A stretch of 64,000 bases of DNA, from NCBI GenBank assembly GCA_001785615.1, contig MFUG01000013.1, positions 11,006-75,005 of the forward strand, in the 5' to 3' direction. The position numbers were made by a program, and so were the translations under genes. Positions 3,021 to 60,660 of this stretch are shown here, piece after piece. The number at the start of each line of letters is the position of its first letter. Position 1 is the first letter of the stretch. Origin of the DNA: Candidatus Nomurabacteria bacterium RIFCSPHIGHO2_02_FULL_42_19 (GTDB taxonomy: Bacteria > Patescibacteriota > Minisyncoccia > Phycocordibacterales > UBA9973). The notes beneath the pieces are model-generated. The model ran no database searches. It was not told the origin of the DNA and was given only the letters and a program-made list of their open reading frames with translations.

Positions 3021-4289
3021 CTAAAACTTTAGTTTTCTCAAAAACTTGGATTTTTTCTTAAAAGGTCCAATGAGCGCCAGATTAAGTTTGTTATTCTTGA
3101 AAATGTGCTGGGCTAGAGTTTTTATTTGGCTAGCGGTAACACGGCGTATTTTATCTATTTTGTCTTCTGCATTTTTTGTTTCGCGTTTTAATAGTTCCTG
3201 CCCTCCATAAAAATTGGCGATGTCATCAGTGGACTCAAGCGAGAGCTTCAGGTTGCCTATCAGGCATTCTTTTACCTTATTTAATTCTTCCTCTTCTACT
3301 TTGTAAATTTTTAGCTTCCGACATTCCTCTAGTACTGCCTTTATCACTTCGGCTATCCTTTTATTATCCACTCCGGCAGAAATTTGAAAAAATCCGTGGT
3401 CAGTATAAGCGTCGTTATACGCGCGAACATAATATCCTACTCCCATCTCCTCGCGTAATTTTTGAAAAAGTCGGGAGCTCATTCCGCCACCCAAAATTCC
3501 GCCTAATACTGAAAGTATTGCGCTTTTTTTGCTAAACAAATCATGGGTGCGTACGCCCAACACGAAATGTGTTTGGTCTGTTTTCTTGAATTTAACTAGG
3601 GCGCATGGCTTTTTCTGTATTTCTTTCACTTTAACTTTTTTTGCTTTTTTCCCACGGGAAACATTATCAAAAATCTTTTTTATTTCTTTCAGCACTTCCT
3701 TTTCATTCACCTGCCCGACCACTACGATCACCGTGGCCTCCGGTAGATAGTGCTCTTCTTTATAGCGCACAAAATCATCCCGTTTCATTCTGAAAATATT
3801 TTTTTTAGAACCGGCAATATTCCAGCCCGCTGGCTGATCGCCATAAAGTAGTTTCATGACCAGGTCCTGCACATGTCGGTTCGGCATATCTTCATACATA
3901 TTTATCTCTTCAATGATTACTCCTTTCTCCTTTTCTATTTCTTGTTCTGGGAAAGTGGAATTAAGATAGACATCTGAAACAACATCCAGAATTTGCTTAA
4001 AATGCTTCGCATCGGACTTGGCATAGTAACCTGTATATTCTTGGGCGGTAAAAGCATTATATTCACTCCCTAGGGCGTCTAATTCTTTGGAAATGTCTAT
4101 CGCTTTGGGCCTGCGGAGTGTTCCCTTAAAACACATATGTTCTAAAAAGTGGGAGATGCCGTTTAATTTTTTCGTTTCGTACTTGCTGCCCGCTTCCACC
4201 AAAACCAAGACCGTCACCGTCGGATTATCCTGCATCGGAATAGTTACCACCCGCAGTCCGTTTTTAAGAGTTGTTTTTGAGAATCCCAT
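3021..4289 (-). CDS. M16 (pitrilysin/insulinase) family zinc peptidase
   Basis: Inverted zinc-binding motif HFLEH (HxxEH) near the N-terminus. 422 aa with the M16 two-lobe layout. Confidence 0.8.
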   Translation of the reverse strand: MGFSKTTLKNGLRVVTIPMQDNPTVTVLVLVEAGSKYETKKLNGISHFLEHMCFKGTLRRPKAIDISKELDALGSEYNAFTAQEYTGYYAKSDAKHFKQILDVVSDVYLNSTFPEQEIEKEKGVIIEEINMYEDMPNRHVQDLVMKLLYGDQPAGWNIAGSKKNIFRMKRDDFVRYKEEHYLPEATVIVVVGQVNEKEVLKEIKKIFDNVSRGKKAKKVKVKEIQKKPCALVKFKKTDQTHFVLGVRTHDLFSKKSAILSVLGGILGGGMSSRLFQKLREEMGVGYYVRAYNDAYTDHGFFQISAGVDNKRIAEVIKAVLEECRKLKIYKVEEEELNKVKECLIGNLKLSLESTDDIANFYGGQELLKRETKNAEDKIDKIRRVTASQIKTLAQHIFKNNKLNLALIGPFKKKSKFLRKLKF

Positions 4290-4326
4290 CGTTAAAATAT
4301 ATCACGCCATATAAATCTTCACAATA

Positions 4327-4363
4327 ATTGCCTATTTTTACGCTATAGCGTAATTATAAGCAA
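4327..4363. repeat. Family-1 palindromic repeat, copy a (attgcctatttttacgctatagcgtaattataagcaa). Contains a perfect 16-bp palindrome, ttacgctatagcgtaa
   Basis: 34/37 identical to the copy at 4972-5008. Abuts the stop of ORF 4368..4970. Confidence 0.85.
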
Positions 4364-4367
4364 TAAT

Positions 4368-4970
4368 CTAACAAGGTAGGTTAAAAACTTCTCGAATGCG
4401 CCTATCATTTTCAATACTGTCAGCAATAACATAGAGGAGATCCTTGCCAATTTTAAAGTCTGCCTTGAGAAGCATTACCAGATCTTCGCAGTCGTAGGGG
4501 AAAATCCACACACTATCTTGTAAATAATGAAACCCGATTTGCTTAAGTGTGCTACGTATTTTTTCACGCGTATTTTTTCTTTTCTCTTTTACGTCAAATA
4601 TAAGCATTCTCCACTTCCCATCCCAGCGCCTTGGCCTCTCGAATTGATAATCCTTTAATTCAAATTGGCGAAGCTTCGCCTCTCCTTTTGGGGTCAAACG
4701 AGCGAAGGTTCCATTTTCCGTTTGCTCAAAAATTATCAATCCTTCATTTTTTAGCCTATTCCAGGATCGATTAACAGAATATTTACCGAATTTATTCTTC
4801 ATAAATTGCGGCTCGATTTGAGCTAGAACTTTCGTCATCTTTGGGGCTACTAAAGCAACACTCAACCCACCCAAGGCAAATACTGTGCTTAAAATTGCCT
4901 TTTGAATATTTGCCTTTTTTGAGCGTTTTCTTGAAGCTTTTTCTAACTGCCCCATGTAATCATAATACAC
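4368..4970 (-). CDS. PaaX-like small protein: N-terminal winged-HTH-like region plus C-terminal Cas2/VapD-like motif. Paralog 1 of 4
   Basis: C-terminal motif WRMLIFDVKEKRKNTREKIRSTLKQIGFHYLQDSVWIFPY follows the Cas2 pattern hhYD-x-R-R-x-L-x-G-x-Q-SVF. Paralogous to 17789..18352, 9235..9708 and 27139..27636. Alternative start GTG at 4970 or ATG at 4955. Confidence 0.5.
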   Translation of the reverse strand: MYYDYMGQLEKASRKRSKKANIQKAILSTVFALGGLSVALVAPKMTKVLAQIEPQFMKNKFGKYSVNRSWNRLKNEGLIIFEQTENGTFARLTPKGEAKLRQFELKDYQFERPRRWDGKWRMLIFDVKEKRKNTREKIRSTLKQIGFHYLQDSVWIFPYDCEDLVMLLKADFKIGKDLLYVIADSIENDRRIREVFNLPC

Positions 4971-4971
4971 T

Positions 4972-5008
4972 ATTGCCTATTTTTACGCTATAGCATAATT
5001 ATAGACAA
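4972..5008. repeat. Family-1 palindromic repeat, copy b
   Basis: Direct repeat of 4327-4363 (34/37 identical). Abuts the start codon of ORF 4368..4970. Confidence 0.85.
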
Positions 5009-5037
5009 CAAGTTTTATAACTTGCCTTTATATAATT

Positions 5038-5295
5038 TCAAGAAATTCGGTAACCCAAAAATTCATAATCTAAAATATCGGTAGAATATTCTTCTTTTAT
5101 TTCTTTCTTAAGAGTGTTCTCAATAGTATCCCCAAACTCGACTCCCCCGCCGCCGGGATCCCAGGTCCCTTTTTCGTCTCTGGAATTTTGTCCTCTTTTA
5201 CTTAAAAGAACATTTTTTTTCCCGTCATGGCAAAAGTAAACTACTGCAATTCCGGTATAATCTTCACCTCTTTTCATATTAGATTTTTTCTTCAA
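5038..5295 (-). pseudogene. NUDIX hydrolase, C-terminally truncated (85 aa)
   Basis: The Nudix box GGGVEFGDTIENTLKKEIKEE is present, but the ORF stops only 18 aa after it. The missing ~50 aa would lie where the family-1 repeat-flanked module now sits. Confidence 0.5.
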
Positions 5296-6532
5296 TATAT
5301 TTTACTAGGTCAGAAACCTTTATTCGCTCTTGTAGGGCAGTATCGCGGTCGCGGATGGTGACAGTATCGTCTTTCAGCGTGTCAAAATCAATGACGATGC
5401 AGTAAGGGGTGCCGATTTCGTCCTGCCGACGATAACGCTTGCCGATATTGCCGTTATCGTCCCAGGCCACGCGACCGAATTCGGCCTTGAGGGGCGCATA
5501 GACCTTGGTATTGGCATATTCTACTAACTCGGGTTTATTCTTTAGAAGTGGCGAGACGGCGCAAATAACTGGCGCCATGTTGGGTTTAAACTTGAGATAC
5601 ACTCTGGGGCCGTCCTTTTCGCCTGCCCCGTTGGAAACTTGCTTTCCTTCGGGGTCTTCTTTATAAGCAGAAAGAAGAAGCGCGAGAACTGCGCGATCCA
5701 CCCCGAAAGTTGGCTCAATTACATGTGGTACTATTTTTTCATTTTTCTCTTCATCAATGTAATCAAGCTTATGATTACTTAAATCAAAATTCGTTCGGTA
5801 AGCCAGGCCGAAAAGTTCTTTACGTCCGAAAGGATAATCGAATTCAAAGTCAGTCGTTCTTTTGGAATAATGTGCTCTCTCCCCATTCGGAACCTCAAGT
5901 TCGTGCACTTTTGTCATATCAATGCCTATTTCTTTCATCCATTCAAGCATTTCATCCTTCCAGTATTCAAAATATTTTTCCCATTCGGATGCTCTTACAA
6001 AATATTCTATTTCCATCTGTTCAAACTCACGCTGACGAAAAAGAAAATCGCGAGGAGCGATTTCATTTCGGAAGGCCTTACCTATTTGGGCAATACCGAA
6101 AGGTAGCTTGGGATGATGGGCGTCAATTAGGTTCTTGAAATTTACAAAAATCCCCTGTGCGGTTTCCGGGCGTAAATAGGAGGTAATAGCTTCTTCGCCT
6201 GCCCCCACTTGGGTTTGAAACATTTCGTTAAATTTTTTACCCTCGGGGGTTGTGCTTAAAAACCCGGCTACGTGACCCGAAGCAACCCAAACTTTTGGAT
6301 TAAAAATGATGGAAGAATTCAGGCCATACATATCACGCCTGGAATCAACAAACTTTTTCCACCAAGAATTTTTTATATTGTTTTGCAACGCAAGACCGTA
6401 ATGTCCATAATCGTAAAAACCGGCCAGTCCTCCATAAATTTCCGAACTCTGGAAAACAAAACCGCGCCTTTTGCAAAGCGAAACAATTTTCTCCATTAGA
6501 TTGTCATCAGTTTTTGACATATTTTTATTCAA
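5279..6532 (-). CDS. glyQS: Glycyl-tRNA synthetase, dimeric class II type
   Basis: The N-terminus FQSSEIYGGLAGFYDYGHYG and the class II core motifs match GlyRS (alpha2 type). Confidence 0.85.
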   Translation of the reverse strand: MNKNMSKTDDNLMEKIVSLCKRRGFVFQSSEIYGGLAGFYDYGHYGLALQNNIKNSWWKKFVDSRRDMYGLNSSIIFNPKVWVASGHVAGFLSTTPEGKKFNEMFQTQVGAGEEAITSYLRPETAQGIFVNFKNLIDAHHPKLPFGIAQIGKAFRNEIAPRDFLFRQREFEQMEIEYFVRASEWEKYFEYWKDEMLEWMKEIGIDMTKVHELEVPNGERAHYSKRTTDFEFDYPFGRKELFGLAYRTNFDLSNHKLDYIDEEKNEKIVPHVIEPTFGVDRAVLALLLSAYKEDPEGKQVSNGAGEKDGPRVYLKFKPNMAPVICAVSPLLKNKPELVEYANTKVYAPLKAEFGRVAWDDNGNIGKRYRRQDEIGTPYCIVIDFDTLKDDTVTIRDRDTALQERIKVSDLVKYIEEKI

Positions 6533-8456
6533 CTACCCGGTCTCCGTTCGACGGGAAAGCGGAATCATTTACCAGCCGAGTATTAAGCGATGCTTTATTA
6601 ACTCTGATATCCAGATTAGCAAAATCGTCGTGCCCAGTCAAAGTTGCGTCGTTTATAATAACAGGAATGGTATTAACTTGAGACAACGAAGGGATAAAGG
6701 TGACAACAAAAGAGACCTCCTTGCCGGTAGTTGTGATCCCTGTTCCCCTCGGAATATTGCCTATATTCCAGATTATTTCTTTGGTTGAAGAATTATAAAT
6801 TAAATCCTCCGACGAAGGAGAAAATTTTCCTGCAAAATTTATCCACGGGGGAAGGGTAGAGCGTACGGACGCTTTAGAAATATTGTTGGCGGTATTAGAA
6901 AGAGACCACGCCACAGTATAAGTCGTTTCTTCTTCGGCCTTGGGGGGAATAGCTCCGGTATTCTTAAAAGGTCCGGAAAAATAAAGCGCTTTCGCGGCCA
7001 GTCCCGTATCAGAAATAATTTTAATTACCGAGGATTCTTTGTTGCCCAGGTCTTTGGATTCATACCCGGCGAGCGTTTGCTGCCCTGAAATATCTACGTC
7101 AATATTTATAGAAGGGTTAGCCAGCATGCCACTTGAGGCAGAAAATAGGGAGAGGGAGGAAATAGAAAAACTCACTGATCCAGAATCCCCCGGGTCTATT
7201 TCCTTAAATCTACTAATGGAATTTTTGTCCCAAATAATTACATCTTCGGATGAATTATAAAAGCCCTGCTTGGCAAAGATGGTTTTGCGATTGACCGCAT
7301 TCCCAGAAATTTTCGCGCGAATTTCCAGATCACTTATCTTGGTATCCAAGTTGTTGGTAAAACGAACTTCGGCATTAATGGGGGTACCAGAATAGCTAGA
7401 ATATTCTCTTTGACTTGCACCATCGATAAAAAACTTCGCCTCAATAAGAGGTTTTTTAATAACGACTGTCTGCTTTAAGGAGTTGAAAACGGTGCCAATA
7501 GTGGACTTGTCGGCAGCGGATTGTGACCCGCTCCAAACGTGAAAGGTTTTTTCTTCACCGTCAAAAACATCCAATATCTTGCCTTCGACGTAAATATTTT
7601 TGTCTGCCCCAGGAGCCAGATCCCCTAAGTCCCAAATATTATTGCCAAATGAGGGGGCCGGCGTTGCCTTGGTAAATTGAAAACCGACAGGATAATCAAG
7701 CCGCAGAAGCATCTTGGCCGCCGGCCGCGTAGCGTTCAGTGTGGCTTTTACTTTCAGGGTCATATTTTGATTTGGGCTTACGGAAGTCGGAAGATCCAGT
7801 GAAAGATTTATCGGGGTAGAGTTTATAGTTACTTCATATGATTTTTCCTTTACGAAAATAGCGTTGGATCCTTCTACCCGATACTCAATAGAAATTTTAA
7901 TGGGGCGAATACTGCCTTGTTCGCCAAAAAGAACTACTCTTACATTTTCATTTCTAATTACTCCCGGCGGAATAGTGCCTAGGGACTCGCGGATGCGTTC
8001 TGTTTCCGACCCCAGATTGACTTCTGAATTTTTGGGGTATTCCACAACCAGGTCGACAAGTTCCAGCGCCGAGGTATTTCTATTGGTTATACCAATCTGT
8101 AACGGTAGTTCTTCTCCGCCAGCAGTAAAAGCATTTCCCAGAATAGAGATATCTATGTTGTTGTTGGAAACGGTATTGCTTTCAACAAAAAACATGTAGG
8201 AGGCATATCCGACAGCCAAAATAAAAAAACCTACAGAAAAAATGAAAAACTTCTTAAAGAGAGACGTTTTTATAAAAAATTTTTCCCCTAAATCTTGCGC
8301 CACCCGTCCGCTAGTCCTCCAAACGTCCGGAACGTCCTTCGTTTCTAAGGGAGTAAAATTATCTCGATGCTCTACCTTTGTTTTATAACTTTTACTGAAA
8401 AGTTTGCTTTTTAGTTCTTCTATTCTGTTTAATTTATCTCCATCGCCTGATACCAT
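6525..8456 (-). CDS. Large membrane-anchored surface protein with a beta-rich repetitive ectodomain
   Basis: 643 aa. Cytoplasmic N-terminus of ~70 aa, then a single TM helix (FFIFSVGFFILAVGYASYMFF), then a long Ser/Thr/Asn-rich extracellular region. No recognised catalytic motif. Confidence 0.5.
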   Translation of the reverse strand: MVSGDGDKLNRIEELKSKLFSKSYKTKVEHRDNFTPLETKDVPDVWRTSGRVAQDLGEKFFIKTSLFKKFFIFSVGFFILAVGYASYMFFVESNTVSNNNIDISILGNAFTAGGEELPLQIGITNRNTSALELVDLVVEYPKNSEVNLGSETERIRESLGTIPPGVIRNENVRVVLFGEQGSIRPIKISIEYRVEGSNAIFVKEKSYEVTINSTPINLSLDLPTSVSPNQNMTLKVKATLNATRPAAKMLLRLDYPVGFQFTKATPAPSFGNNIWDLGDLAPGADKNIYVEGKILDVFDGEEKTFHVWSGSQSAADKSTIGTVFNSLKQTVVIKKPLIEAKFFIDGASQREYSSYSGTPINAEVRFTNNLDTKISDLEIRAKISGNAVNRKTIFAKQGFYNSSEDVIIWDKNSISRFKEIDPGDSGSVSFSISSLSLFSASSGMLANPSINIDVDISGQQTLAGYESKDLGNKESSVIKIISDTGLAAKALYFSGPFKNTGAIPPKAEEETTYTVAWSLSNTANNISKASVRSTLPPWINFAGKFSPSSEDLIYNSSTKEIIWNIGNIPRGTGITTTGKEVSFVVTFIPSLSQVNTIPVIINDATLTGHDDFANLDIRVNKASLNTRLVNDSAFPSNGDRVVE

Positions 8457-9201: not shown

Positions 9202-9241
9202 AACATAACACTACATCGCGACCGCGATAGATTGTTATGTT
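9202..9241. repeat. Family-3 palindromic repeat, copy a (aacataacactacatcgcgaccgcgatagattgttatgtt)
   Basis: Imperfect palindrome with outer arms aacataaca/tgttatgtt and core tcgcgaccgcga. Overlaps the stop of ORF 9235..9708. Shares the core and outer arms with 9718-9753. Confidence 0.75.
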
Positions 9242-9708
9242 GCTTTTCTAACCCTAAACACACGGATGTTTTCATAAATACCAAGAACTCTCAACCTCTC
9301 ACCAAATTCTTTTGGTAGAGGACCATGACCAAGCCATAAGCTTTTATGAATCATCTCAAAATCCCAATATTTTATCTGATTGCGGAGCCAGTCCCTAGTT
9401 TTTTTCTTGGTTTCAGGTATATCAAAAGATAGCAACACTCTTTCGGTCTTGCCTGGATAAATATTTTTCATCACCGAGTTATTCTTTACGGCAAGTTTAG
9501 CTAAATCCTCTCGACAAATATGAATGGTCTCGCCGTCTGTCTCAACAACCCCCTGCTTTCCTAACCGATAAATGCGTTGCCGAAAAGCTTCCGGAGTTAG
9601 GTTTTTTTGCCTTGCTCGCATTCTTTTCCACAACATCTTCCTGTATATTTTTGTTGAACGAGAAGACAGTAAAAATGCTATTAAGTGATCTACTATCGTC
9701 GGTTGCAT
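9235..9708 (-). CDS. PaaX-like/Cas2-like-motif small protein, paralog (subfamily B)
   Basis: C-terminal motif VLLSFDIPETKKKTRDWLRNQIKYWDFEMIHKSLWLG. Closest to 27139..27636 (shared FDIPE-K-R-WLR-I-KS-W-G-PLP-EF). Confidence 0.5.
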   Translation of the reverse strand: MQPTIVDHLIAFLLSSRSTKIYRKMLWKRMRARQKNLTPEAFRQRIYRLGKQGVVETDGETIHICREDLAKLAVKNNSVMKNIYPGKTERVLLSFDIPETKKKTRDWLRNQIKYWDFEMIHKSLWLGHGPLPKEFGERLRVLGIYENIRVFRVRKAT

Positions 9709-9717
9709 GGGTATATT

Positions 9718-9753
9718 ATAACATATTTTCGCGACCGCGAAGGAACGTTATGT
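9718..9753. repeat. Family-3 palindromic repeat, copy b (ataacatattttcgcgaccgcgaaggaacgttatgt)
   Basis: Shares aacata...tcgcgaccgcga...gttatgt with 9202-9241. Sits ~10 nt upstream of the start of ORF 9235..9708. Confidence 0.7.
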
Positions 9754-10409: not shown

Positions 10410-11009
10410 TCACAGAATTTCTTCCAGGGCCTTTAGTAAGTCCTCAGGGGTGCTGACAACCTTTGCAGGGTTAGCTTTTTGTAAATTTTCTTCTTCATGA
10501 AATCCCCAGGTAACGGCGATGGACTTGATCCCGCATTCCCGTGCTTCGGCAATATCGCCTGTTGTGTCTGTAATAAAAACAGCATTTTCTGATGTAATTT
10601 TATATTTTTCCAAAAGCATTTTGTTTTTCACAACTTTGCTGGTGTGAATATCTCCTCCTAATATATCGGAAAAACATTCGAGGACATTCGCTTGTTTTAA
10701 AATTTTTGTTATGAGTGCTGACGGCGTCGCCGAAACAATGGCAAGTTTGTAATCTTTGTTTAGTTCAAAAATGATGTCTTGTAATGGTTGTGGTACCTTA
10801 AACTCCCGTGACTGTTCTTCGTATCGTTCGAAAAATTTAGGATGTTGTTTTACTTTAGGATTATTTTTTAATGAATTATAAATATTCCCATTAAAAAGAG
10901 AGCGGAACATGTGAAGAGACAAGTTTTCATTGGTCTCTTTGCTAATTTCATAACTCACTATGAATGTATCCACCAAGACCCCATCAAAATCAAAAAGAAT
11001 CAATTTCAT
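10410..11009 (-). CDS. HAD-superfamily hydrolase/phosphatase
   Basis: N-terminal motif I LILFDFDGVLVDT (DxDG). Confidence 0.75.
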   Translation of the reverse strand: MKLILFDFDGVLVDTFIVSYEISKETNENLSLHMFRSLFNGNIYNSLKNNPKVKQHPKFFERYEEQSREFKVPQPLQDIIFELNKDYKLAIVSATPSALITKILKQANVLECFSDILGGDIHTSKVVKNKMLLEKYKITSENAVFITDTTGDIAEARECGIKSIAVTWGFHEEENLQKANPAKVVSTPEDLLKALEEIL

Positions 11010-14000
11010 ACTTTATCAATCTTTACTTTGAAAACCAACTCCCCTATTTTCACCTCTTCGCTATTAGTGTCTTTAAATTCTATTTTGGATGCCAGTGCAA
11101 TTTTTTTAATATCTTGCTCAAATTTTTGGATTAAACTCTTTCCCGCGTCGTCGGTTTCAACAGAAAGGGTGATCATGTCGCTCGGCGTCAGCCCCATTTT
11201 CTTCCGCATATCTTGAACAGCGCGCAAAAGCTCGCGATAACTTCCCTCTTGCTTTAATTCATGAGTTAACTCAGTAATTAATTTAAATTCCTTTCCGGCT
11301 GAAACTTCTTTGACGTTCAATTCATCTTTTATTAGCTCAATATACTCTGTGGTTAAACTTAAATTCGCCAACTCTAACTTAGCAAGCGGCTGACGAACTT
11401 GGATTTTCGCTTTCTGCCTGGCTTCTAACCCTAAAGAAACTATTTTTCTAACCTCTGCCATGTTTTCTAAAACTTTTGGCCGAAGGTCCCGAGCAGAAAC
11501 GAGGGGCCACTCGGCCAAATGCACACTGCCTACATCCTTATCTGTTTTTAGTCGGCGCCAAATATCTTCTGCCGCAAACGGAGTAAACGGGGCCATAATT
11601 TTCGCTAGAGTTTTCAAAATAAAATACAAAGTTGCTTTCGCGTCCCCGTCTCCCTCTTTAATCCGCTCGCGGGAGCGGCGAAGGTACCAAGTAGAAAGGT
11701 CCCCTATAAAATCCTTTATCGCGCGGGTCGGTTCAAGCAATTTATAATTGTCTAAGCTGTCAGTAGTGAGTTTTACCAGCTCATTTAGTCGAGCTATGAT
11801 CCATTGATCAAGGACATTGGTAGGCTTTAGGCGGTAGGCACTAGGCTCTAGCGAAACATTCCGATATAGTTCATAGAAAGCCAACACATTGTAGAGCAGG
11901 CCGAAAACCTGCTGATGAAGAAGAGCCACCGTTTTTTCATCAAAATTTTTGGACTCACCCGGCTGATTGACCGAATACATCCATAAGCGCAGTGTATCCA
12001 CACCGTATTTATCTATCATTTCCCACGGGTTCACAATATTTCCCAGGGATTTGGACATTTTTTTACCATTGGCATCGAGTAAATGCCCGAGGCAAATCAC
12101 ATTTTTATACGCTTTTCCCCGGCCCATCAGCACCCCCACTGCGTGCAGGGTATAAAACCATCCACGGGTCTGGTCAATAGCTTCCGAAATAAAATCCGCC
12201 GGGTAGCCCTTGCCGTCTACCCATTTTTTGTTTTCAAAGGGATAATGATCTTGAGCGAAAGGCATGCAGCCGGAATCCAGCCACACATCCATTACCTCTT
12301 TAGTTCTTACCGCACTGCCGCCACAGTCGCACACCAGATGAACCCCATCAATATACGGACGATGCAAGTCAAGTTCATAATTTTCATTGTGCGGCAATGG
12401 GATAAAATCTAATTTTTTCATTTCTCCCGTATGAAGCATTTCTTTTTCTTTAAAATTATTATCTGAAGATCCAGCGGATATTTTTTGTAAAACCCATAAA
12501 GGGTTGCCGTGAGAAACTATAAGAATATTTTTCCCTTGATATTTATTATCAATCTCATATATAAATTCCGCCATTCTTCTCCTAACAATATCCTCACTGC
12601 CTTCGTTTGATTCATGAAGCCGATCATCAACTAAAACAGCGTCGGGAGCAAGGCCTAGTTCATTTTTTACTACCTCTGCGGTCTCTTTGGTTCTTAAAAA
12701 TGGCGAGGAAAATATCGGGTTTATATCTTTTAATTTCTTAGATGTAGATATTGCTTCCTTTTTACCTTTTTCAGTCAAGTGATTGTCCGGATCACCCTTT
12801 GGGTCCAACAAGTGTTTGGCGTTATTAATTGCTTCTCCATGCCGCATAATAAAATATTTATTGCCGGATTTTTTAGTTTTACTTTGGAGATCTTCCAAGC
12901 CCCCGACGACATGCCTCTTCTCACATTTTTCGCAAGTCCAGACGGGCAGAGGCGTGCCCCAGTATCGCTCGCGGGATATTGCCCAGTCCTTGATCTCCCG
13001 TAGCCATTCGCCGAAACGTCCCTCGCGGGTATGCGCCGGCTCCCAGTTTATATTTTTATTTTCATTAATTAGTTGTTTCTTAATTTTTGGATCCGACATT
13101 TTGATATACCAAGAGTCCCGCGCATAGTATATGAGCGCTGTCTTACAGCGCCAGCAGTGCGGATATGAGTGTTGATAGTTTTCTTTATCGAAAAATAAAT
13201 TTTTATCTGTTAAATATTTAATAATGTCCACATCCAAAGTTGGCTTTCCACTGTCGTCTTTTTCTCTCACAAATCTTCCTCCCAAGAACCCTGTGCCTTC
13301 TATAAACTTACCTTCGGGGTCTACCAGATGGTGTTTCGGTAGTCCTACTTTCGTACCAAGCTCAAAATCGTCTTGCCCATACATCACCGCGGTGTGCACG
13401 ATACCCGTACCGTCTTCAGTATTTACAAAGTCCGCCGCGTAAACCCGAAAGGCCTTATCTGTTGACTCCCCTTTTTTCTCTAGTTGTTCTTTTAAGTATG
13501 GGAAAAGTGGTTCGTACTCTAGCCCAACCAAATCTTTGCCTTTCATTTCGGTTATAACTTCAGGATTTTCACCAAAAACAGGAAGTCGCGCCTTTGCTAG
13601 AATATATATTTCGTCCCCGCTTTTGACTTTCACATAATCAACCTTCTCCCCCACCGCAAGCGCGACATTCCCTGGCAAAGTCCAAGAGGTGGTCGTCCAG
13701 GCCAAGAAATACATATTGGCCGAGTCTGTATGCTTTTGTGAAGGAGTGGCTGAGCGTAGTGAGGAACCGAGCGACTGAGGAAAAGCATCAGGCGAGGCCA
13801 GCTTGAACTTTACATAAACCGAAAGATCTTTCACTTCTTCATACCCCTGTGCGAGCTCGTGTGAAGAAAGCGCGGTGCCGCATCTCGGGCACCAAGGTAC
13901 CACCTTGTAATCCTTGTAAAGAAGTTTCTGATCATCTACTTTTTTTACAACATTCCAAACCGATTCAATATAATCATTGTGATATGTGGCATACGCATTT

Positions 14001-14437
14001 TCTTGATCTACCCAATATCCGACACGTTCGGTAAATTTATTCCAGGCCTCAAGATATTCCCAGACGCTCTCCCTGCATTCCTGATTAAATTTAGCTACAC
14101 CGTATTCCTCAATCGCTTTTTTTGAATTAAGACCTAATTTCTTTTCTACCTGGATTTCTACTGGAAGTCCATGCGTGTCCCAACCGCCCTTGCGGCGTAC
14201 ATGGTACCCCTGCATCGTTTTGTAGCGAGGAATCGCATCTTTGAAGACACGCGCTTCCAAGTGGTGAAGCGCTGGTTTAGCATTGGCCGTCGGCGGACCT
14301 TCGTAAAAGATAAATTCTTTTTTACCTTCGGATTCTTTTAATGTCTTTTCAAAAATTTTATTCTCGCGCCAAAATTCCAAGATGCGCTCTTCCCGAAGAG
14401 CCGCATCTGATTTTTTATTCTTTTCGGTTTCAGCCAT
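11006..14437 (-). CDS. ileS: Isoleucyl-tRNA synthetase (type 2, archaeal/eukaryote-like) with an inserted histidine-phosphatase (PGAM-like) domain
   Basis: Editing-domain motif WTTTSWTLPGN, KMSKS (KKMSKSLGN), LHRPYID...DVWLDSG. A ~125-aa insert at aa ~527-650 reads KYFIMRHGEAINN...LTEKGKKEA...SSPFLRTKETA...ILIVSHGNPL, i.e. the RHGE...SHG pattern of the histidine phosphatase superfamily. HIGH motif is non-canonical (PALHHLEA). Confidence 0.85.
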   Translation of the reverse strand: MAETEKNKKSDAALREERILEFWRENKIFEKTLKESEGKKEFIFYEGPPTANAKPALHHLEARVFKDAIPRYKTMQGYHVRRKGGWDTHGLPVEIQVEKKLGLNSKKAIEEYGVAKFNQECRESVWEYLEAWNKFTERVGYWVDQENAYATYHNDYIESVWNVVKKVDDQKLLYKDYKVVPWCPRCGTALSSHELAQGYEEVKDLSVYVKFKLASPDAFPQSLGSSLRSATPSQKHTDSANMYFLAWTTTSWTLPGNVALAVGEKVDYVKVKSGDEIYILAKARLPVFGENPEVITEMKGKDLVGLEYEPLFPYLKEQLEKKGESTDKAFRVYAADFVNTEDGTGIVHTAVMYGQDDFELGTKVGLPKHHLVDPEGKFIEGTGFLGGRFVREKDDSGKPTLDVDIIKYLTDKNLFFDKENYQHSYPHCWRCKTALIYYARDSWYIKMSDPKIKKQLINENKNINWEPAHTREGRFGEWLREIKDWAISRERYWGTPLPVWTCEKCEKRHVVGGLEDLQSKTKKSGNKYFIMRHGEAINNAKHLLDPKGDPDNHLTEKGKKEAISTSKKLKDINPIFSSPFLRTKETAEVVKNELGLAPDAVLVDDRLHESNEGSEDIVRRRMAEFIYEIDNKYQGKNILIVSHGNPLWVLQKISAGSSDNNFKEKEMLHTGEMKKLDFIPLPHNENYELDLHRPYIDGVHLVCDCGGSAVRTKEVMDVWLDSGCMPFAQDHYPFENKKWVDGKGYPADFISEAIDQTRGWFYTLHAVGVLMGRGKAYKNVICLGHLLDANGKKMSKSLGNIVNPWEMIDKYGVDTLRLWMYSVNQPGESKNFDEKTVALLHQQVFGLLYNVLAFYELYRNVSLEPSAYRLKPTNVLDQWIIARLNELVKLTTDSLDNYKLLEPTRAIKDFIGDLSTWYLRRSRERIKEGDGDAKATLYFILKTLAKIMAPFTPFAAEDIWRRLKTDKDVGSVHLAEWPLVSARDLRPKVLENMAEVRKIVSLGLEARQKAKIQVRQPLAKLELANLSLTTEYIELIKDELNVKEVSAGKEFKLITELTHELKQEGSYRELLRAVQDMRKKMGLTPSDMITLSVETDDAGKSLIQKFEQDIKKIALASKIEFKDTNSEEVKIGELVFKVKIDKV

Positions 14438-17704: not shown

Positions 17705-17746
17705 ATTATTATCTAATTATATATCTTTCCCCCACAAAAACCAACC

Positions 17747-17780
17747 TAGCATTTGCTTACGACCGTTAGTAAATGCTAAA
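17747..17780. repeat. Family-2 palindromic repeat, copy a (tagcatttgcttacgaccgttagtaaatgctaaa)
   Basis: Stem tagcattt/aaatgcta around a cgaccg core. 8 nt upstream of the start of ORF 17789..18352. Near-identical to 18355-18388 and related to 60557-60590. Confidence 0.85.
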
Positions 17781-17788
17781 ATGGTTCA

Positions 17789-18352
17789 ATGAGTCAAAAT
17801 ATTAAACGGCTAGGGACTACGCAACGAAAGATTCTTCTGCTTCTTCTGGCAGGGCTCGCGTTGGGTTTAACCAGATCGCCGAAAAAGCATTGGTGGATTT
17901 TAAAACAGATACCGAAAGAATGGAAAAAGATAAACCGACAAGCCCTGGAGAGGGCGATTAATTCTCTTTATGTTTCTCATCTAGTGCAGAAGGAACAACA
18001 CAGAGATGGCACAACCACTTTTGTCTTGAGTGAAAATGGTAAACGAAGGGCCTTGCGATTTAATATCGATAAGATGGAAATCAAAAGGCCGGGTAAGTGG
18101 GATAATAAATGGCGAGTGGTGATGTTTGATATTCCAGAAAAATTAAGGAGGTTGCGAGATTCTTTACGTTTACATTTCCGTGAAATAGGTTTAATTGAAC
18201 TCCAAAAATCAGTTTTTGTATATCCTTATCCATGCAGTAAGGAAATCGAGTTTATCTTGGAATTCTACAATACAAGAAGGCATGTGCGTTTTCTCTTGGT
18301 CGAAAAGATAGATAATCAGCTTCATTTAATGAAAAAATTTAATCTGTGTTAG
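17789..18352 (+). CDS. PaaX-like small protein (wHTH + Cas2/VapD-like motif), paralog (subfamily A)
   Basis: C-terminal motif WRVVMFDIPEKLRRLRDSLRLHFREIGLIELQKSVFVYPY. Aligns with 4368..4970 (RP-KWD-KWR...FD...Q-SV...PY-C). Confidence 0.5.
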   Translation: MSQNIKRLGTTQRKILLLLLAGLALGLTRSPKKHWWILKQIPKEWKKINRQALERAINSLYVSHLVQKEQHRDGTTTFVLSENGKRRALRFNIDKMEIKRPGKWDNKWRVVMFDIPEKLRRLRDSLRLHFREIGLIELQKSVFVYPYPCSKEIEFILEFYNTRRHVRFLLVEKIDNQLHLMKKFNLC

Positions 18353-18354
18353 TT

Positions 18355-18388
18355 TAGCATTTGCTTACGACCGTTTGTTAATGCTAAA
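18355..18388. repeat. Family-2 palindromic repeat, copy b (tagcatttgcttacgaccgtttgttaatgctaaa)
   Basis: 32/34 identical to 17747-17780. Begins 2 nt after the stop of ORF 17789..18352. Confidence 0.85.
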
Positions 18389-18396
18389 TAAGTTAT

Positions 18397-27061: not shown

Positions 27062-27138
27062 TAAGAAATTTAACAAAACGATTCCCATAAAATCAATATT
27101 TATAATTCTGCTATAGCAGATAAAAAAGTATCGATAAC

Positions 27139-27636
27139 TTAACTTAAAGCAAAAGAGTCGGTTTTGTACGGTTTTGCTAATTTTAATACCTTTATACATT
27201 TCTCAAGATGAATGTGCTCTAGATAAGAGATAAATTCTCGAGGCAAAGGAGAAGGACCAACCCATATACTTTTTTGAATCATTTTATACCCGAACTTTCT
27301 TAAATGCCACCTGAACCATTCCCGCTCAGCTCTCTTACTTTGCGGGATATCATACATCACAATAAGATTTTTTGGGGCGTCTTTGGGAAAACAAGATGGA
27401 AATTCCTTTATGAAGTTCAACTTTCTTTCTAAATACTTCCTACCAGCACTAGTTATAATTGCCTTGTCCTCTCCTGTCAGAATATACTTTTTCTGTTTCA
27501 ACTCGTATAAAGAGTTTCGGATAGATTGTCTTTTATAAGAGCCGAAGGCGGGCAAGCCAAAGAAGCTCACCGGCATACCCTTGTACCTAAAGTGCGGTTC
27601 TAGAAGAAGCCCTAGAATTTTTTCTCCTAAATTCAT
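27139..27636 (-). CDS. PaaX-like/Cas2-like-motif small protein, paralog (subfamily B)
   Basis: LIVMYDIPQSKRAEREWFRWHLRKFGYKMIQKSIWVGPSPLPREF. Closest to 9235..9708. Confidence 0.5.
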   Translation of the reverse strand: MNLGEKILGLLLEPHFRYKGMPVSFFGLPAFGSYKRQSIRNSLYELKQKKYILTGEDKAIITSAGRKYLERKLNFIKEFPSCFPKDAPKNLIVMYDIPQSKRAEREWFRWHLRKFGYKMIQKSIWVGPSPLPREFISYLEHIHLEKCIKVLKLAKPYKTDSFALS

Positions 27637-27731
27637 AGCTTAATTAAGCATAACACACTATATACTCAAAATCTAGCCATGGCATAAATTAAAGTATGGT
27701 AACACAAAATTATATAGTATTAATTTAGAAA

Positions 27732-55220: not shown

Positions 55221-55333
55221 GGATTAAAGGTGTCAGAGATTAAAGGTGGATTAAAGGTGTCAGGAACCTTTCTTTTTACACTATTACATGGGATTAAAGG
55301 TGTCAGGAACCTTTCTTTTTACACTATTACATG
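55221..55333. repeat. Upstream REP-like array: four copies of ttaaaggtg(tcag), including a 43-bp unit duplicated in tandem (55248-55290 and 55291-55333)
   Basis: Two adjacent copies of ggattaaaggtgtcaggaacctttctttttacactattacatg, preceded by ggattaaaggtgtcag and agattaaaggtgg. Confidence 0.85.
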
Positions 55334-57684: not shown

Positions 57685-57734
57685 AATTGCAAAAATAACT
57701 ATTTTATATCCTATTTCTATGCTAAAATAACCCC

Positions 57735-58121
57735 ATGCCTGAAGGAGACCAAAAGGGTCATAATTTTTTCTTAGATATTTTAGTTTTAGGGTGTTTTGTT
57801 GCCATAATCACTTCTTTTTACTTTTTCTACTTTCAAAAGGATTACGATTTTATCGTGGAAGTTGCGTGTGATCCCACCGAAGAAACATGTTTACAGCGTG
57901 ACTGCTCCAACCCCGACGACTGCCCGCCGAACGGCCTATCTGATTTCAAAAGATACGGCTTAAACGCGGGCGACTTTGCAAAGTGTGAAAATGAGGACTG
58001 CGAAAACGCCTGTGAGACCGGAGCCATAAAATGCGAACTGCTAGAATGTGAGGAGGATGAAATAATGGGAGAAGCATGCAGTTCTTTCGAATCGCCTGCT
58101 AGTGATAAGGAACAAATATGA
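57735..58121 (+). CDS. Small membrane-anchored Cys-rich protein
   Basis: N-terminal TM helix, then 12 Cys in ~80 aa (CDPTEETCLQRDCSNPDDCPPNG...CENEDCENACETGAIKCELLECEED). Confidence 0.45.
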   Translation: MPEGDQKGHNFFLDILVLGCFVAIITSFYFFYFQKDYDFIVEVACDPTEETCLQRDCSNPDDCPPNGLSDFKRYGLNAGDFAKCENEDCENACETGAIKCELLECEEDEIMGEACSSFESPASDKEQI

Positions 58122-58939
58122 TAAAAATCGGGGACTATAATACAATAATGTCGGACAGAAATATATTCAACCAAATTGTATATACTCCCCTTTCTGAGGC
58201 GCTTCGACTTTTGGATGAACGCAAAAAGAATAAGGAATTGACAGCAAAAGTGGAAAAATTACTAAAAGGGGATATTCCGGAATTTTTAAAAAAGAAGAAC
58301 TGTGCAATTCTTTTTAGACAAGTTGCTACCCCAAACTATGAAACTAGACGATTTATATCTTTAGCAAAAGAAAATGACTTGCATCCGGTAATTTTTGAGT
58401 ATCATGATGATAAATTCACTTCTAATAATGAATTCAAGCACTCACTGGGGCAGTTACATATACAAAAAAAGAATAGAAAAAATAGTAATTTTAGTGTTGA
58501 AAAGATTACAATTATTGATTTTAACTTACATAACGGCAAAAAATTTAAAGATATTAAAACTTTATGGCTAGAACCGCTTGTTGATTTTCATAAAAAATTA
58601 TTTTCTGTTCACGACTATGGTGTTAATGATTTTTATTTATACAACGCCTCAGATTGGTTTAAAAAAAATGGAGGAAAGGCAATTGATTACTATGTCAATC
58701 TACTTTTATTATTTACTTGTTTTGGAATTTTATTTGAAAATTTTTTGACGTCAAAAAACTCCGAAGGCGAATTTACAAAGGGCATAGTATTGCCAGCGAT
58801 AGAAAAAGTGATTAACTTAGTCGGTGTTAAGCCGCTAATAATACCGATTGAACCCCTAGATTTAGAAACAGATATCTTTTGGGTTCATCATTTATTAAAA
58901 GTCAAGGAATTAATTCCAAATTATAAAAATGATAGATGA
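58118..58939 (+). CDS. Hypothetical protein co-transcribed with the histidine kinase
   Basis: 273-aa ORF overlapping its upstream and downstream neighbours by 4 and 11 nt. No motif. Confidence 0.4.
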   Translation: MIKIGDYNTIMSDRNIFNQIVYTPLSEALRLLDERKKNKELTAKVEKLLKGDIPEFLKKKNCAILFRQVATPNYETRRFISLAKENDLHPVIFEYHDDKFTSNNEFKHSLGQLHIQKKNRKNSNFSVEKITIIDFNLHNGKKFKDIKTLWLEPLVDFHKKLFSVHDYGVNDFYLYNASDWFKKNGGKAIDYYVNLLLLFTCFGILFENFLTSKNSEGEFTKGIVLPAIEKVINLVGVKPLIIPIEPLDLETDIFWVHHLLKVKELIPNYKNDR

Positions 58940-60554
58940 AATTTTAAACATTATAAATACTTGTTTTTTAACGACTAGCGCGTCAAGGCCAATAGCTTTT
59001 TACTCCCACTTAATTCCGGTAGTTTTATCAACTTTATTGGCTTTTTTAGTATTTATTAAATCTAAACGCACTCTTTTTTCTACTATTTTTTTGACTTTTA
59101 TTTTTGTCTTTTCTCTTTGGCTCATTGGCGATCTTGTAATATGGACATCGGATAATTATTATCTAATTTATGCCTTTTGGGCTCCTCTCGATTATATAGA
59201 AATAGTATTTTACGTCCTTGGTCTATATTTCGCTATAGTTTTCGTCAAAAAGTCCGACATATCAACATGGTGGAAAATTGTACTTTTTGCTTTAACCCTA
59301 CCAGCATTTTGGCTCACAATCAGTAGACAGTCAGTAATTGGTTTCAATCAGCCAGTCTGCGAAGCATTTAACAATGATTTTCTGGGTCAATATAAACTTG
59401 CCCTAGAGGGCATAATTTTAATATTTATCCTCATTTATGCAATTACTCCATTTTTCAAAAAGCTTCCCTGGAAGAAAAAGTGGCCGGACTTAGTGGTGCT
59501 TGGTTCTATGTTTTTATTCCTATCATCCTTCGGCATTACCGAATATCTGGCTTCCATCACTGGATATTATGAAATGAACTTATACAGCTTATTTCTCTTG
59601 CCGATATTCCTGGTAGCTATTATCTACTCCGTATTTGAACTTGATATTTTTAACGTTCACATTTTGGGCACGCATTACTTGGTCGTCGGGCTTATGGTTC
59701 TAATGGGCGGACAACTCTTCTTTATCACTGACACAACTAACCGATTTCTAACCATTTTAACAATCATCTTGATTACCATATTGAGCGTTATCCTTTTTAG
59801 GAACCTGAAACGCGAGTCCGACCAGAGAGTACAAATCGCGAAACTTAATATTGACCTCCAGAACCTTATCAAGCAGAGGGAGTCCCTCGTGCACCTCGTT
59901 ACCCATAAAGTGAAGGGTTCATTTACCCGTTCTAAATATATTTTTGCCGGGATGTTGGACGGAACTTTTGGCGAAGTGTCCCCAGCCCTTAAAAAAATAG
60001 CCAAACAGGGGCTGGAGTCCGACAATGCGGGCATCCAAACGGTTGATTTGGTCTTGAACGTTTCCAATATGCAGACCGGGACGGTTAAATACGAAATGAA
60101 ATCAATTGACTTAAAAGAACTAGCGCTAAAGGTAATCGCCGACAAGAAAGTCCACGCAGAGGAAAAAAATCTTAAAATAGAAAAAGATGTTAAAGACGAT
60201 AATTACTCCATCGCCGGGGACGTCTTCTGGCTTAAAGAAGTAATGAGCAATTTGATTGACAACTCTATCAAATACACCAAGGAAGGAAAAATAACGGTAG
60301 GTCTGGAAAAGAAGCCCGGCAAGATAATATTCTCGGTCAAAGACACCGGCCTAGGCATAACCGACGAAGATAAAAAGAATCTCTTTACCGAAGGCGGGCG
60401 AGGCAAGGACTCGGTTAAAATAAACGTGGACAGCACGGGCTACGGGCTCTTCTCGGTAAAACTAATCGTGGATGCTCACAAAGGCCGGGTCTGGGGAGAG
60501 TCCGAAGGACCCGGCAAGGGCTCGCAGTTCTTCGTGGAATTGCCGGCAGTATAA
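58929..60554 (+). CDS. Membrane sensor histidine kinase (orphan; no response regulator adjacent)
   Basis: ~8 N-terminal TM helices, an H-box-like VTHKVKGS, and HATPase_c G-boxes (DTGLGI, GTGYGL, GPGKGSQFFVELP). Confidence 0.7.
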   Translation: MIDEILNIINTCFLTTSASRPIAFYSHLIPVVLSTLLAFLVFIKSKRTLFSTIFLTFIFVFSLWLIGDLVIWTSDNYYLIYAFWAPLDYIEIVFYVLGLYFAIVFVKKSDISTWWKIVLFALTLPAFWLTISRQSVIGFNQPVCEAFNNDFLGQYKLALEGIILIFILIYAITPFFKKLPWKKKWPDLVVLGSMFLFLSSFGITEYLASITGYYEMNLYSLFLLPIFLVAIIYSVFELDIFNVHILGTHYLVVGLMVLMGGQLFFITDTTNRFLTILTIILITILSVILFRNLKRESDQRVQIAKLNIDLQNLIKQRESLVHLVTHKVKGSFTRSKYIFAGMLDGTFGEVSPALKKIAKQGLESDNAGIQTVDLVLNVSNMQTGTVKYEMKSIDLKELALKVIADKKVHAEEKNLKIEKDVKDDNYSIAGDVFWLKEVMSNLIDNSIKYTKEGKITVGLEKKPGKIIFSVKDTGLGITDEDKKNLFTEGGRGKDSVKINVDSTGYGLFSVKLIVDAHKGRVWGESEGPGKGSQFFVELPAV

Positions 60555-60556
60555 TT

Positions 60557-60590
60557 TAGCATTAGTGCGCGACCGCTTACTAATGCTAAA
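60557..60590. repeat. Family-2 palindromic repeat, orphan copy (tagcattagtgcgcgaccgcttactaatgctaaa)
   Basis: 10-bp perfect stem tagcattagt/actaatgcta around gcgcgaccgc. Same outer arms and cgaccg core as 17747-17780 and 18355-18388. Lies between the convergent kinase and methyltransferase genes. Confidence 0.8.
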
Positions 60591-60660
60591 AAGACGCGTT
60601 TGACGTCTAAATATCTGATTACTTCTCAACCTGACCCGCTTATTTTCGTTTATTTTAATT

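Follow-up and report, generated by a model that had tools for sequence, protein, structure and literature searches.

Small PaaX-like proteins of Paceibacteria and the paired palindromes around their genes: a predicted autoregulated unit

Among the repressors that are known to act through DNA looping, the operators of one repressor are located approximately 0.1-2.4 kb apart, as is seen in the lac (O1/O2/O3), gal (OE/OI), deo and lambda (OL/OR) systems; in lambda, OL and OR bracket the cI gene itself and sharpen its autoregulation. The present study is concerned with a bracket of predicted operators around the genes of small proteins related to PaaX, a repressor that in E. coli binds the site TGATTC-N27-GAATCA (6-N27-6, 39 bp) and acts by steric hindrance at its own promoter (PMC9493321). 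We have analysed a stretch of 64,000 nucleotides (nt) from Candidatus Nomurabacteria bacterium RIFCSPHIGHO2_02_FULL_42_19 (contig MFUG01000013.1, positions 11,006 to 75,005), hereafter "the window", which contains four short paralogous genes that are accompanied by short imperfect palindromes; a gene together with its palindromes is called a module here, and the modules are numbered by position. At a probability of roughly 0.6, we propose that such a module would be a self-contained, autoregulated unit of a small PaaX-like repressor, operating by the mechanism that is set out below.

Mini-PaaX proteins and the palindromes at their flanks

Judged by their sequences, the four proteins are relatives of PaaX but not PaaX proper, each consisting of a winged helix and a Cas2-like domain, and we refer to them as "mini-PaaX". 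All four exceed the gathering score (24 bits) of the Pfam family PF20803 (PaaX_M, the central, Cas2-like domain of PaaX), with 74, 40.7, 72 and 47.6 bits for modules 1-4 (E 1e-20 for module 1), and the proteins of modules 2, 3 and 4 are paralogs of the module 1 protein, at 17-27% identity; the four genes belong to one family, as the original prediction, made from the letters of the window, had proposed. The AlphaFold2 (AF2) model of the module 1 protein, built with 30 homologs, shows a helical N-terminal region, a two-stranded wing (β-hairpin), a linker helix and then a β-α-β-β-α-β fold; the winged helix that is expected of the PaaX superfamily is present in this model, the confidence of which is moderate (predicted local distance difference test, pLDDT, of 66, with residues 29-61 being poor), and therefore no residue-level structural conclusions are drawn from it. 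Among solved structures, the best Foldseek match to the model is E. coli PaaX (8a39; E 2.4e-5 over 138 columns), then M. tuberculosis Rv0674 (3kfw), and then many Cas2 and VapD structures; similarity to PaaX, Cas2 and VapD, the structural check that had been suggested for these proteins, has therefore been found. Together with the PF20803 match of all four proteins, the modelled fold agrees with the earlier reading of their shared C-terminal motif as a Cas2/VapD core preceded by a PaaX-like helix-turn-helix.

The proteins fall short of PaaX itself: with the PaaX equivalog model TIGR02277, which has a cut-off of 264.55 bits and 279 profile positions, their best score is 45.5 bits, from a match that is limited to positions 33-149. 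No match to PaaX_C was found in the Pfam scan of the four proteins, which end approximately 25 residues past the Cas2-like domain with a short C-terminal helix, and so the C-terminal ligand-binding domain of PaaX is absent. Among 18 flanking genes that have been scanned against Pfam (including GlyRS, M16 peptidase, RecO, NUDIX, deoxynucleoside kinase, HIT and PGK), there is no paa gene, no cas1 and no site-specific recombinase, and a repeat scan of the 64 kb has found no array-like repeat family that could be a CRISPR array; the absence of cas1, of an array and of a recombinase nearby had already been noted in the original prediction. Only the module 4 protein passes Cas2 models (Pfam PF09827 at 25.0 against 23.8 bits; TIGR01573 at 29.2 against 24.5), and the Cas2 matches of all four proteins are confined to model positions ~2-40 (β1-α1), with the PADLOC matches to Cas2 being likewise weak and limited to β1-α1. 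From these comparisons, the mini-PaaX proteins are not Cas2: they carry an additional DNA-binding domain, they are not accompanied by cas1 or an array, and they match PaaX_M best.

Module 1 consists of the following elements:

4368-4955, minus strand: module 1 gene, with its ATG at 4955 and its stop codon at 4368-4370; 195 residues
4972-5009, no strand: upstream palindrome copy, the predicted operator, centred 35 nt before the ATG and covering the gene's own -35 region
4962-4967, minus strand: predicted -10 box TATTAT, ending 6 nt before the ATG, which implies a leaderless mRNA
4327-4364, no strand: downstream palindrome copy, beginning 3 nt past the stop codon and abutting the -35 box of the next promoter
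4296-4324, minus strand: promoter-like site TTGTGA-17-TATATT with a TG extension, in front of the M16 peptidase gene (3021-4289), its -10 box ending 6 nt before the ATG

An alternative start of the module 1 gene that was given by the open reading frame (ORF) tool, a GTG at 4970, is less likely. The two repeats of this module (4327-4366 and 4972-5011) are identical at 36 of 40 bases; each copy is an imperfect 38-bp palindrome, centred on GCTATAGC, with 14-16 of 19 positions being self-complementary. The 38-mer, with up to three mismatches allowed, occurs in the 64 kb only as its own pair, and no shuffled sequence has given a match. In the repeat scan of the whole window, the module 1 pair and the module 3 pair are the largest families of direct repeats. 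Each module of the window has a private palindrome, present in two or three copies, as had been expected of one palindrome family per gene. Three of the four genes had been described as flanked, within 0-10 nt of start and stop: clear pairs are indeed found at modules 1, 2 and 3, but 16 nt separate the upstream copy of module 1 from its ATG, and the fourth module also has a pair, albeit a weak one.

In order to define the bracket beyond the window, we have assembled 80 genome loci of up to 20 kb each that encode relatives, giving 81 evaluable genes (77 from Paceibacteria and the four of the window), and have searched 130 nt on each side of every gene for the best pair of mutually similar, self-complementary sites. 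Paired palindromes flank 70 of the 81 family genes, while one of 280 non-family genes from the same loci passes the same test. An independent metagenome sample, which was retrieved through a neighbouring gene and so is not selected for the family, has a pair at 18 of its 22 distinct family genes, these including the shorter module 2 type and a type of 186 residues. The distance from copy to copy is 513-753 bp, with a median of 640. The pairing is thus general in the family, but not always in the form of direct repeats, as which the palindromes had been presented: next to near-identical direct copies such as those of module 1, there are six clearly inverted pairs in the family, against 20 that are clearly direct.

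The two copies of one gene resemble each other in a position-dependent manner. Identity between copies is 0.83-0.97 in the arms (11-18 bp from the dyad) and 0.83-1.0 in the core (1-4 bp from the dyad), falling to 0.53-0.80 in the spacer (5-10 bp from the dyad) and to ~0.3 beyond position 20. In essentially every site, position -3 of the core is C and position +3 is G; the core reads GC-TATA-GC in 38 loci and CG-GRYC-CG in 24. The arms are gene-specific: the orthologs of module 1, located at one syntenic position, have arms of the type ATTGNC, TCTCC, TTCCCC, GCGC or TTTAC, and within every such genome the two copies agree in their arms despite the differences between orthologs, i.e. they have changed in concert. 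Since arms and core are kept and the spacer has diverged, the two sites appear to be under selection for one binding specificity, rather than being the result of a recent duplication, and it is very likely, from this pattern of conservation, that the palindromes are cognate binding sites of the protein that they flank.

The alignment of 69 family proteins adds to this picture. Residues P108, D121, R130 and S148 are invariant, D121 being located at the catalytic position of Cas2, and conservation is far higher in the Cas2-like domain than in the winged helix; the contrast between the two domains parallels that between the constant core and the gene-specific arms of the palindromes. When the columns of the protein alignment are compared with the bases of the arms, the top seven pairs by mutual information are at residues 56, 57, 59, 63 and 75, the first four corresponding to the turn and the start of the predicted recognition helix and the last to the predicted wing; shared ancestry confounds these values, and they are taken as supportive only. 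As a separate observation, residue 147, located between the invariant Q146 and S148 (LQ-D-SVW), is D in 37 of 38 loci with the TATA core and N in 15 of 24 with the GRYC core; it is possible that the Cas2-like domain faces the dyad with the region of this residue, although shared ancestry confounds the association.

Predicted roles of the upstream and the downstream copy

The upstream copy is best considered together with the start sites of this genome. Shine-Dalgarno motifs occur at five of the 58 non-overlapping genes of the window, and 22 of the 58 have a -10-like hexamer, in many cases with a TG extension, that ends 5-9 nt before the ATG, from which leaderless mRNAs appear to be the rule. 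In 27 of the 70 family loci, the distance from the dyad of the upstream copy to the ATG is exactly 17 nt; in this design, TATAAT is found at +6 to +11 from the centre, in the right half of the site, and the right arm includes the ATG itself (...TGTATGGG). The other positions of the upstream centre, at -26 (modules 2 and 3), at -35 to -38 (module 1) and at -45/-46, all place the site over the -10 or the -35 box. The right spacer scores 4.1 (of 6) as a -10 box in upstream copies, against 3.07 in downstream copies, and the presence of the -10 box in the upstream spacer accounts for the divergence of the spacers between copies. Compared with a PaaX-type operator, the predicted sites have a length of 38 bp, arms at 11-18 bp from the dyad and an overlap with the -10/-35 boxes or the ATG. 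The overlap with the -10/-35 boxes, and often with a leaderless ATG, implies autorepression, and we consider it likely, on the basis of this geometry, that the upstream copy mediates it.

The downstream copy is located by reference to the gene that it follows: its dyad lies at a median of 37 nt past the gene's own stop codon (range -13 to +105). The gene beyond it is convergent in 33 of 68 loci, and since half of the downstream neighbours are convergent, the downstream copy is not generally an operator of the neighbour; as a general rule, that assignment was rejected on neighbour orientation. In a more specific form, it would make the module a classical local regulator, having one operator of its own and one at the promoter of the next gene, which is its target. 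The group of module 1 fits such an arrangement well: the neighbour is co-directional in 12 of 13 loci, being an M16 peptidase or a nudix gene wherever it has been identified, and in the window the palindrome abuts the -35 box of the leaderless M16 promoter (4324-4296), which makes a dual role plausible for the downstream copy of this group. In the orthologs of module 1 (W1 and L002-L018), the distances from the downstream centre to the next leaderless ATG (55, 56, 64, 64, 73, 82, 101, 104, 110 and 110 nt) also change in steps of ~9 nt (Rayleigh p ~0.001 at a period of 9.2, uncorrected, n = 10 related loci). Outside this group, the neighbour is convergent in 30 of 53 loci, modules 3 and 4 of the window among them, against a baseline of 0.376 (p = 0.006), and the position of the downstream copy follows its own stop codon, rather than taking the stereotyped promoter distances of the upstream copies; the -10 signal is missing from the downstream copies as well. 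We therefore regard a role as the neighbour's operator as unlikely. A "lone antisense gene" arrangement is found at twice the expected frequency, modules 3 and 4 of the window being such cases.

The earlier suggestion of autoregulatory operators that are duplicated on both sides of the gene is the one that we favour, given the PaaX-like geometry, the overlap with promoter and start, and the conservation of arms and core between copies. In the mechanism that we propose, a dimer of mini-PaaX would bind the ~38-bp PaaX-type operator, dimerisation being assumed by analogy with PaaX and Cas2; the variable recognition helix of the winged helix would read the gene-specific arms, 11-18 bp from the dyad, a role that the covariation supports, while the Cas2-like domain, as a dimer, would probably lie at the dyad, on the conserved core with its C at -3 and G at +3. 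Once bound, the protein would keep RNA polymerase away and so restrain its own production, in analogy to the action of PaaX at the Px promoter. The second operator, 10-60 nt past the stop codon, has the same arms and core and would be a site for the same protein, as the pattern of conservation suggests; its most likely role would be that of a second anchor, with two dimers closing a loop of ~640 bp around the gene; a loop of this kind could give tight, low-noise repression at a very low copy number of the protein, as for LacI, GalR, DeoR and lambda CI. Alternatively, the second operator could block transcription into or out of the unit. That the downstream copy acts in either of these ways, i.e. 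by looping or as a roadblock, is a tentative suggestion that is made by analogy. Lastly, the downstream copy is sometimes also located just upstream of the next promoter (M16 peptidase or nudix, in the case of module 1), and additional cognate sites would make an action in trans possible.

Several points weigh against an autoregulated unit of this kind. Simple autorepression would need no second operator behind the gene, and tetramers of mini-PaaX are only hypothetical; the proteins have no ligand-binding domain and most of them have no visible target but themselves, which is odd for a regulator; the two copies are only weakly phased on the helix (uncorrected Rayleigh p ~0.02 at 10.5 bp); and the invariance of D121, R130 and S148 exceeds the conservation that a mere dimerisation module would need. 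In addition, double changes in the spacer are compensatory, keeping its self-complementarity in 27 cases against 6.1 expected (none of 500 shuffles has reached 27), which indicates that palindromy itself is maintained and keeps structure-based explanations alive. These changes could point to selection for a hairpin or a cruciform, or to quasipalindrome-templated mutation, a known process, rather than to contacts with a protein alone. As for phasing in general, either of the copies to each other or of the upstream centre to the ATG, periods of 9-11 bp are not distinguished and related loci dominate, and we make no claim on it.

The compensatory changes bear most directly on the possibility that the palindromes are nucleic-acid hairpins independent of the protein, serving as 3' terminators, mRNA stabilisers or insulators in a genome that is poor in canonical terminators, with their likeness to operators being a by-product. 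It is consistent with such a role that downstream copies occupy terminator-like places, often between convergent genes, that the predicted RNA hairpins reach -10 to -18 kcal/mol, and that the number of canonical terminator-like sites in this genome does not exceed chance (27 found in the window, 20.6 +/- 4 expected from shuffles). On the other side, no U-tract follows the palindromes in the composition table of the family sites and the z-scores of folding are modest (-0.8 to -3.9), for which reasons an intrinsic terminator was rejected; in the -17 design, moreover, transcription from the gene's own promoter does not include the upstream copy. Hairpins would also leave unexplained why the 3' copy has the same gene-specific arms and the same core as the site at the promoter, and why a pair occurs at merely one of 280 other genes, and we hold this explanation to be improbable.

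Turnover of the modules, their neighbours and further sites

The original prediction had offered a miniature mobile cassette as the alternative to autoregulation. In its wider form, the module would be a miniature mobile or selfish element, present or ancestral, comparable with IS200 and RAYT-REP, in which a Cas2-like nuclease acts on palindrome hairpins and autoregulation, as in transposases, comes from a promoter at the left end. The evidence does not support mobility at the present day: the identical proteins of two module 1 orthologs occur on 22 and 18 contigs from different samples, always between GlyRS and the M16 peptidase, and module 1 orthologs keep their syntenic position down to ~58% identity. 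Scans of viral contigs and PHROGs have found no relatives, and the Pfam scans of the four proteins have given no transposase family, the families listed being PaaX_M, Cas2 and others whose matches are weak and at the level of chance. In the window, no module has a second copy and each has its private palindrome.

Over longer times, as the comparison of related loci indicates, modules are gained, lost and shifted within a conserved backbone, IleRS-(HAD)-(MBL)-RecO-o6525-GlyRS-M16-AI-2E, in which o6525 is an ORF of 643 residues (6525-8456) with one weak Pfam match, DUF11. Of 57 related loci from metagenomes, 25 have GlyRS and M16 next to each other, with 2-32 nt between the two, only six have module 1, one of them with a frameshift, and in many loci the slot between GlyRS and M16 is occupied by other small genes; the presence/absence polymorphism of whole modules that had been proposed as a check therefore exists over these longer evolutionary distances. 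Orthologs of module 2 are found on either side of the MBL gene, and nudix genes on either side of module 1. No solo palindrome was found at the empty GlyRS-M16 and MBL-RecO junctions (2-32 nt), and a model of target-site duplications or excision scars was rejected on account of these junctions and of the six inverted pairs.

Mobility would agree with this patchy presence and with the placement of modules on either side of a neighbour gene in different genomes; also with the terminal palindromes around one small gene, ~650-700 bp in total, which resemble IS200 and REP-flanked RAYT genes (PMC3116915), with the enriched convergent and lone-antisense placements, with the several paralogs per genome, with the invariant Asp at the Cas2 catalytic position and with the hairpin potential that compensatory changes preserve. 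The single context of identical proteins, the synteny of orthologs, the empty sites, the inverted pairs, the lack of copies, viral relatives and transposase families, and the concentration of copy differences in the spacer, which fits long-term selection and not recent duplication, all argue the other way; we consider a mobile or selfish element to be a poor candidate.

A related idea connects the nuclease fold to the flanks. A putatively catalytic Cas2-like domain could act on its own flanking palindromes when these are extruded as hairpins or cruciforms, which would make the modules a class of domesticated or still selfish elements; the invariant Asp, Arg and Ser, the compensatory palindromy, the patchy presence and the shifting position of the modules are compatible with it, and we nevertheless rate it as quite unlikely. 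If true, this would be a Cas2-fold nuclease guided by a winged helix and bracketed by its targets, a living analogue of a tie between Cas2-like proteins and palindromic repeats before CRISPR.

The same fold, related to the VapD toxin and to Cas2 nucleases, could instead belong to an autorepressed toxin or defence gene, in which the loss of repression, e.g. under phage attack, would release a burst of a VapD/Cas2-like nuclease. Invariant acidic and basic residues, operator specificities that diversify fast among orthologs and a patchy distribution would agree with such a gene, but the PADLOC matches are weak and restricted to β1-α1 of Cas2, the scanned neighbours are housekeeping genes and not defence islands, and no partner antitoxin is present; a toxin or defence function seems very improbable to us.

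With the autoregulated unit as the preferred reading, the remaining modules of the window and a further site are as follows:

9235-9708, minus strand: module 2 gene, 157 residues, PaaX_M at E 2.5e-10
9716-9753, no strand: module 2 upstream palindrome, core TCGCGACCGCGA, arms ATAACA/TGTTAT
9203-9240, no strand: module 2 downstream palindrome, overlapping the stop codon
17789-18352, plus strand: module 3 gene, 187 residues, PaaX_M
17744-17781, no strand: module 3 upstream palindrome, its right arm AATGCTAAAAT holding the -10 box TAAAAT, 6 nt before the ATG
18352-18389, no strand: module 3 downstream palindrome, filling most of the 45-nt gap to the convergent gene
27139-27636, minus strand: module 4 gene, 165 residues, PaaX_M; also above the cut-offs of Cas2 models
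27661-27698, no strand: module 4 weak upstream palindrome, core GCCATGGC, arm ATACTTT, centre at 27679, degenerate
27095-27132, no strand: module 4 downstream palindrome, core GCTATAGC, centre at 27113, good; between convergent genes
60554-60591, no strand: orphan third site, with the module 3 arms TAGCATT...AATGCTA and the core CGACCG

On the strand of the module 2 gene, a TATAAT box is located at the arm edge of the upstream palindrome, 6 nt before the ATG. The module 3 gene is antisense to both of its neighbours, a NUDIX and a deoxynucleoside kinase gene, and its upstream palindrome is located within a divergent promoter region that is common to the NUDIX gene. The two copies of module 4 have the arm ATACTTT in common and are identical at 25 of 40 positions. 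The orphan site is located between convergent genes, 42 kb away from module 3, where it immediately follows the stop codon of a histidine-kinase-like ORF (58929-60554). For the operon ending at this site, a candidate half-site of module 3 in its promoter (57700-57735) was rejected, since the match is restricted to the extended -10 box and the left arm is missing.

In the window, a generic search for palindromic arms with a C/G core recovers all eight module sites and one convincing orphan, the site at 60554-60591. Across 865 kb of sequence centred on the backbone, 31 family-type palindromes adjoin family genes and 17 are located elsewhere, the latter being mostly coding-like and at or below the chance rate that was obtained from window shuffles; in the sequence sampled, sites of the family type are almost confined to the neighbourhood of family genes. 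Third cognate sites within 4 kb occur in five of 70 loci (L007, L055, L067, L068 and L071). The third site of L071 (centre 1448) ends in ...GTGTATGGGTAGTAAGTAA, i.e. an ATG GGT start like that of family genes, with a stop after four codons; it may be a remnant of a lost paralog or a promoter that has been reused for the next gene. In a further locus (L094, centre 8771 / L095, centre 10181), a family-type palindrome, AAATGTTACAAACTCTGCTATCGCAGAAAATCTAACAAAA, is located ~20 nt before a nudix ATG, in a slot without a family gene, and is a candidate trans target. Trans targets thus appear to exist, the dominant ones that are seen within the sampled loci being the genes' own flanks. A general association of modules with NUDIX genes was considered and set aside, the motif counts (3 of 155 adjacent genes, 1 of 405 others) being too few to conclude.

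The surroundings of the modules have also given some observations of their own. Next to module 1, the NUDIX ORF at 5038-5295 (minus strand) is truncated to 79-85 residues, its relatives having 143-146, and extends exactly to the upstream palindrome; related loci carry the nudix gene on the upstream or on the downstream side of module 1, and one locus (L012) has a copy of 171 residues upstream and a remnant of 61 residues downstream. A frameshift has left the module 1 ortholog of L089/L090 (10895-11484) as two overlapping ORFs, and its downstream palindrome is lost. In L020 (954-2201), there are two inverted copies of the module gene with identical E-values, either an assembly artefact or a real inverted duplication. 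Elsewhere in the window, an isoleucyl-tRNA-synthetase-like protein of 1143 residues (11006-14437, minus strand) has a histidine-phosphatase domain (PF00300, residues 529-613) inserted inside its catalytic domain, and a perfect tandem duplication of a 43-nt unit (GGATTAAAGGTGTCAGGAACCTTTCTTTTTACACTATTACATG) is found at 55248-55333, just upstream of a gene starting at 55347. Scans of the 64-kb window have found no Rfam family at the gathering score and no tRNA gene.

The homologs are from Patescibacteria (Candidate Phyla Radiation, CPR), i.e. Nomurabacteria, Paceibacterota, Taylorbacteria, Zambryskibacteria and others. An exhaustive HMMER search has returned 3,616 clusters at 50% identity, 1,789 of them at E <= 1e-10, and among the best 150 clusters the length is mostly 180-200 residues. 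Several paralogs can occur in one genome: the 64-kb window contains four, and a single assembly accounts for up to four of the 80 loci. In NCBI and JGI records, the homologs are variously named "hypothetical", "PaaX" or "CRISPR-associated endonuclease Cas2"; the frequent label "Cas2" is probably due to borderline scores with Cas2 models, such as that of module 4, and can inflate the count of CRISPR systems in a group that is largely without CRISPR. Full-text literature searches aimed at the family have found no description of it or of the two-operator bracket, and the stereotyped placement of two operators around one leaderless gene raises the question of the purpose of the second site. Gene regulation in CPR/Patescibacteria is almost unexplored, and mini-PaaX may contribute a major share of the sequence-specific DNA-binding proteins of Paceibacteria. 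The sequences analysed here form a ready catalogue of predicted protein-operator pairs, with private arms, a common core and a fixed geometry, which suits the study of how DNA-binding specificity diversifies and could yield orthogonal repressor-operator parts.

Comparison with described systems

The closest described relative is PaaX of E. coli and Pseudomonas (8a39, 3l09), which responds to phenylacetyl-CoA and has the same order of an N-terminal winged helix and a Cas2-like central domain. Its operator is likewise long, with widely spaced inverted arms (39 bp in E. coli, 38 bp here), and PaaX occludes RNA polymerase at its own promoter (PMC9493321), as we propose, by analogy, for mini-PaaX. 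The differences are that mini-PaaX is without the C-terminal ligand-binding domain and, among the genes examined, without paa genes; that its operator has a conserved core at the dyad and a second copy behind the gene; and that it occurs as several paralogs per genome, each with private arms, with a leaderless start codon embedded in the operator.

With Cas2 (PF09827, TIGR01573), mini-PaaX has in common the β-α-β-β-α-β fold, the FD/YD at the end of β1 and the QxS(V/I)(W/F) strand. It differs from Cas2 by the added winged helix, by the restriction of Cas2 model matches to β1-α1, with three of the four proteins below the cut-offs, by best matches to PaaX_M, and by the absence of cas1 (18 flanking genes) and of a CRISPR array (64 kb).

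RAYT/REP and IS200/IS605 elements (PMC3116915, PMC3337134) are similar in that a single small gene is bracketed by its own family of short imperfect palindromes, with one palindrome family per gene lineage and mostly vertical inheritance. In contrast, mini-PaaX has no transposase-family match and is unrelated to the HUH/Y1 transposases, its palindromes are not amplified in the sampled sequence (2-3 copies in the 64-kb window), and its upstream palindrome carries a promoter and a start codon.

The C proteins of restriction-modification systems (PMC2632904) are also small helix-turn-helix autoregulators with palindromic boxes at their own promoters, and the word "leaderless" occurs in that paper too. 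Their fold, however, is of the Xre type, their genes are not known to be followed by a second box, and what they control is a nuclease gene next to their own.

Compared with the looping repressors, the mini-PaaX bracket is tight, spanning one gene over 513-753 bp, and is stereotyped throughout the family, with the second site usually having no promoter of its own. The bracket thus resembles both RAYT/REP and the lambda OL/OR pair around cI, but matches neither in protein family, copy number or scale.

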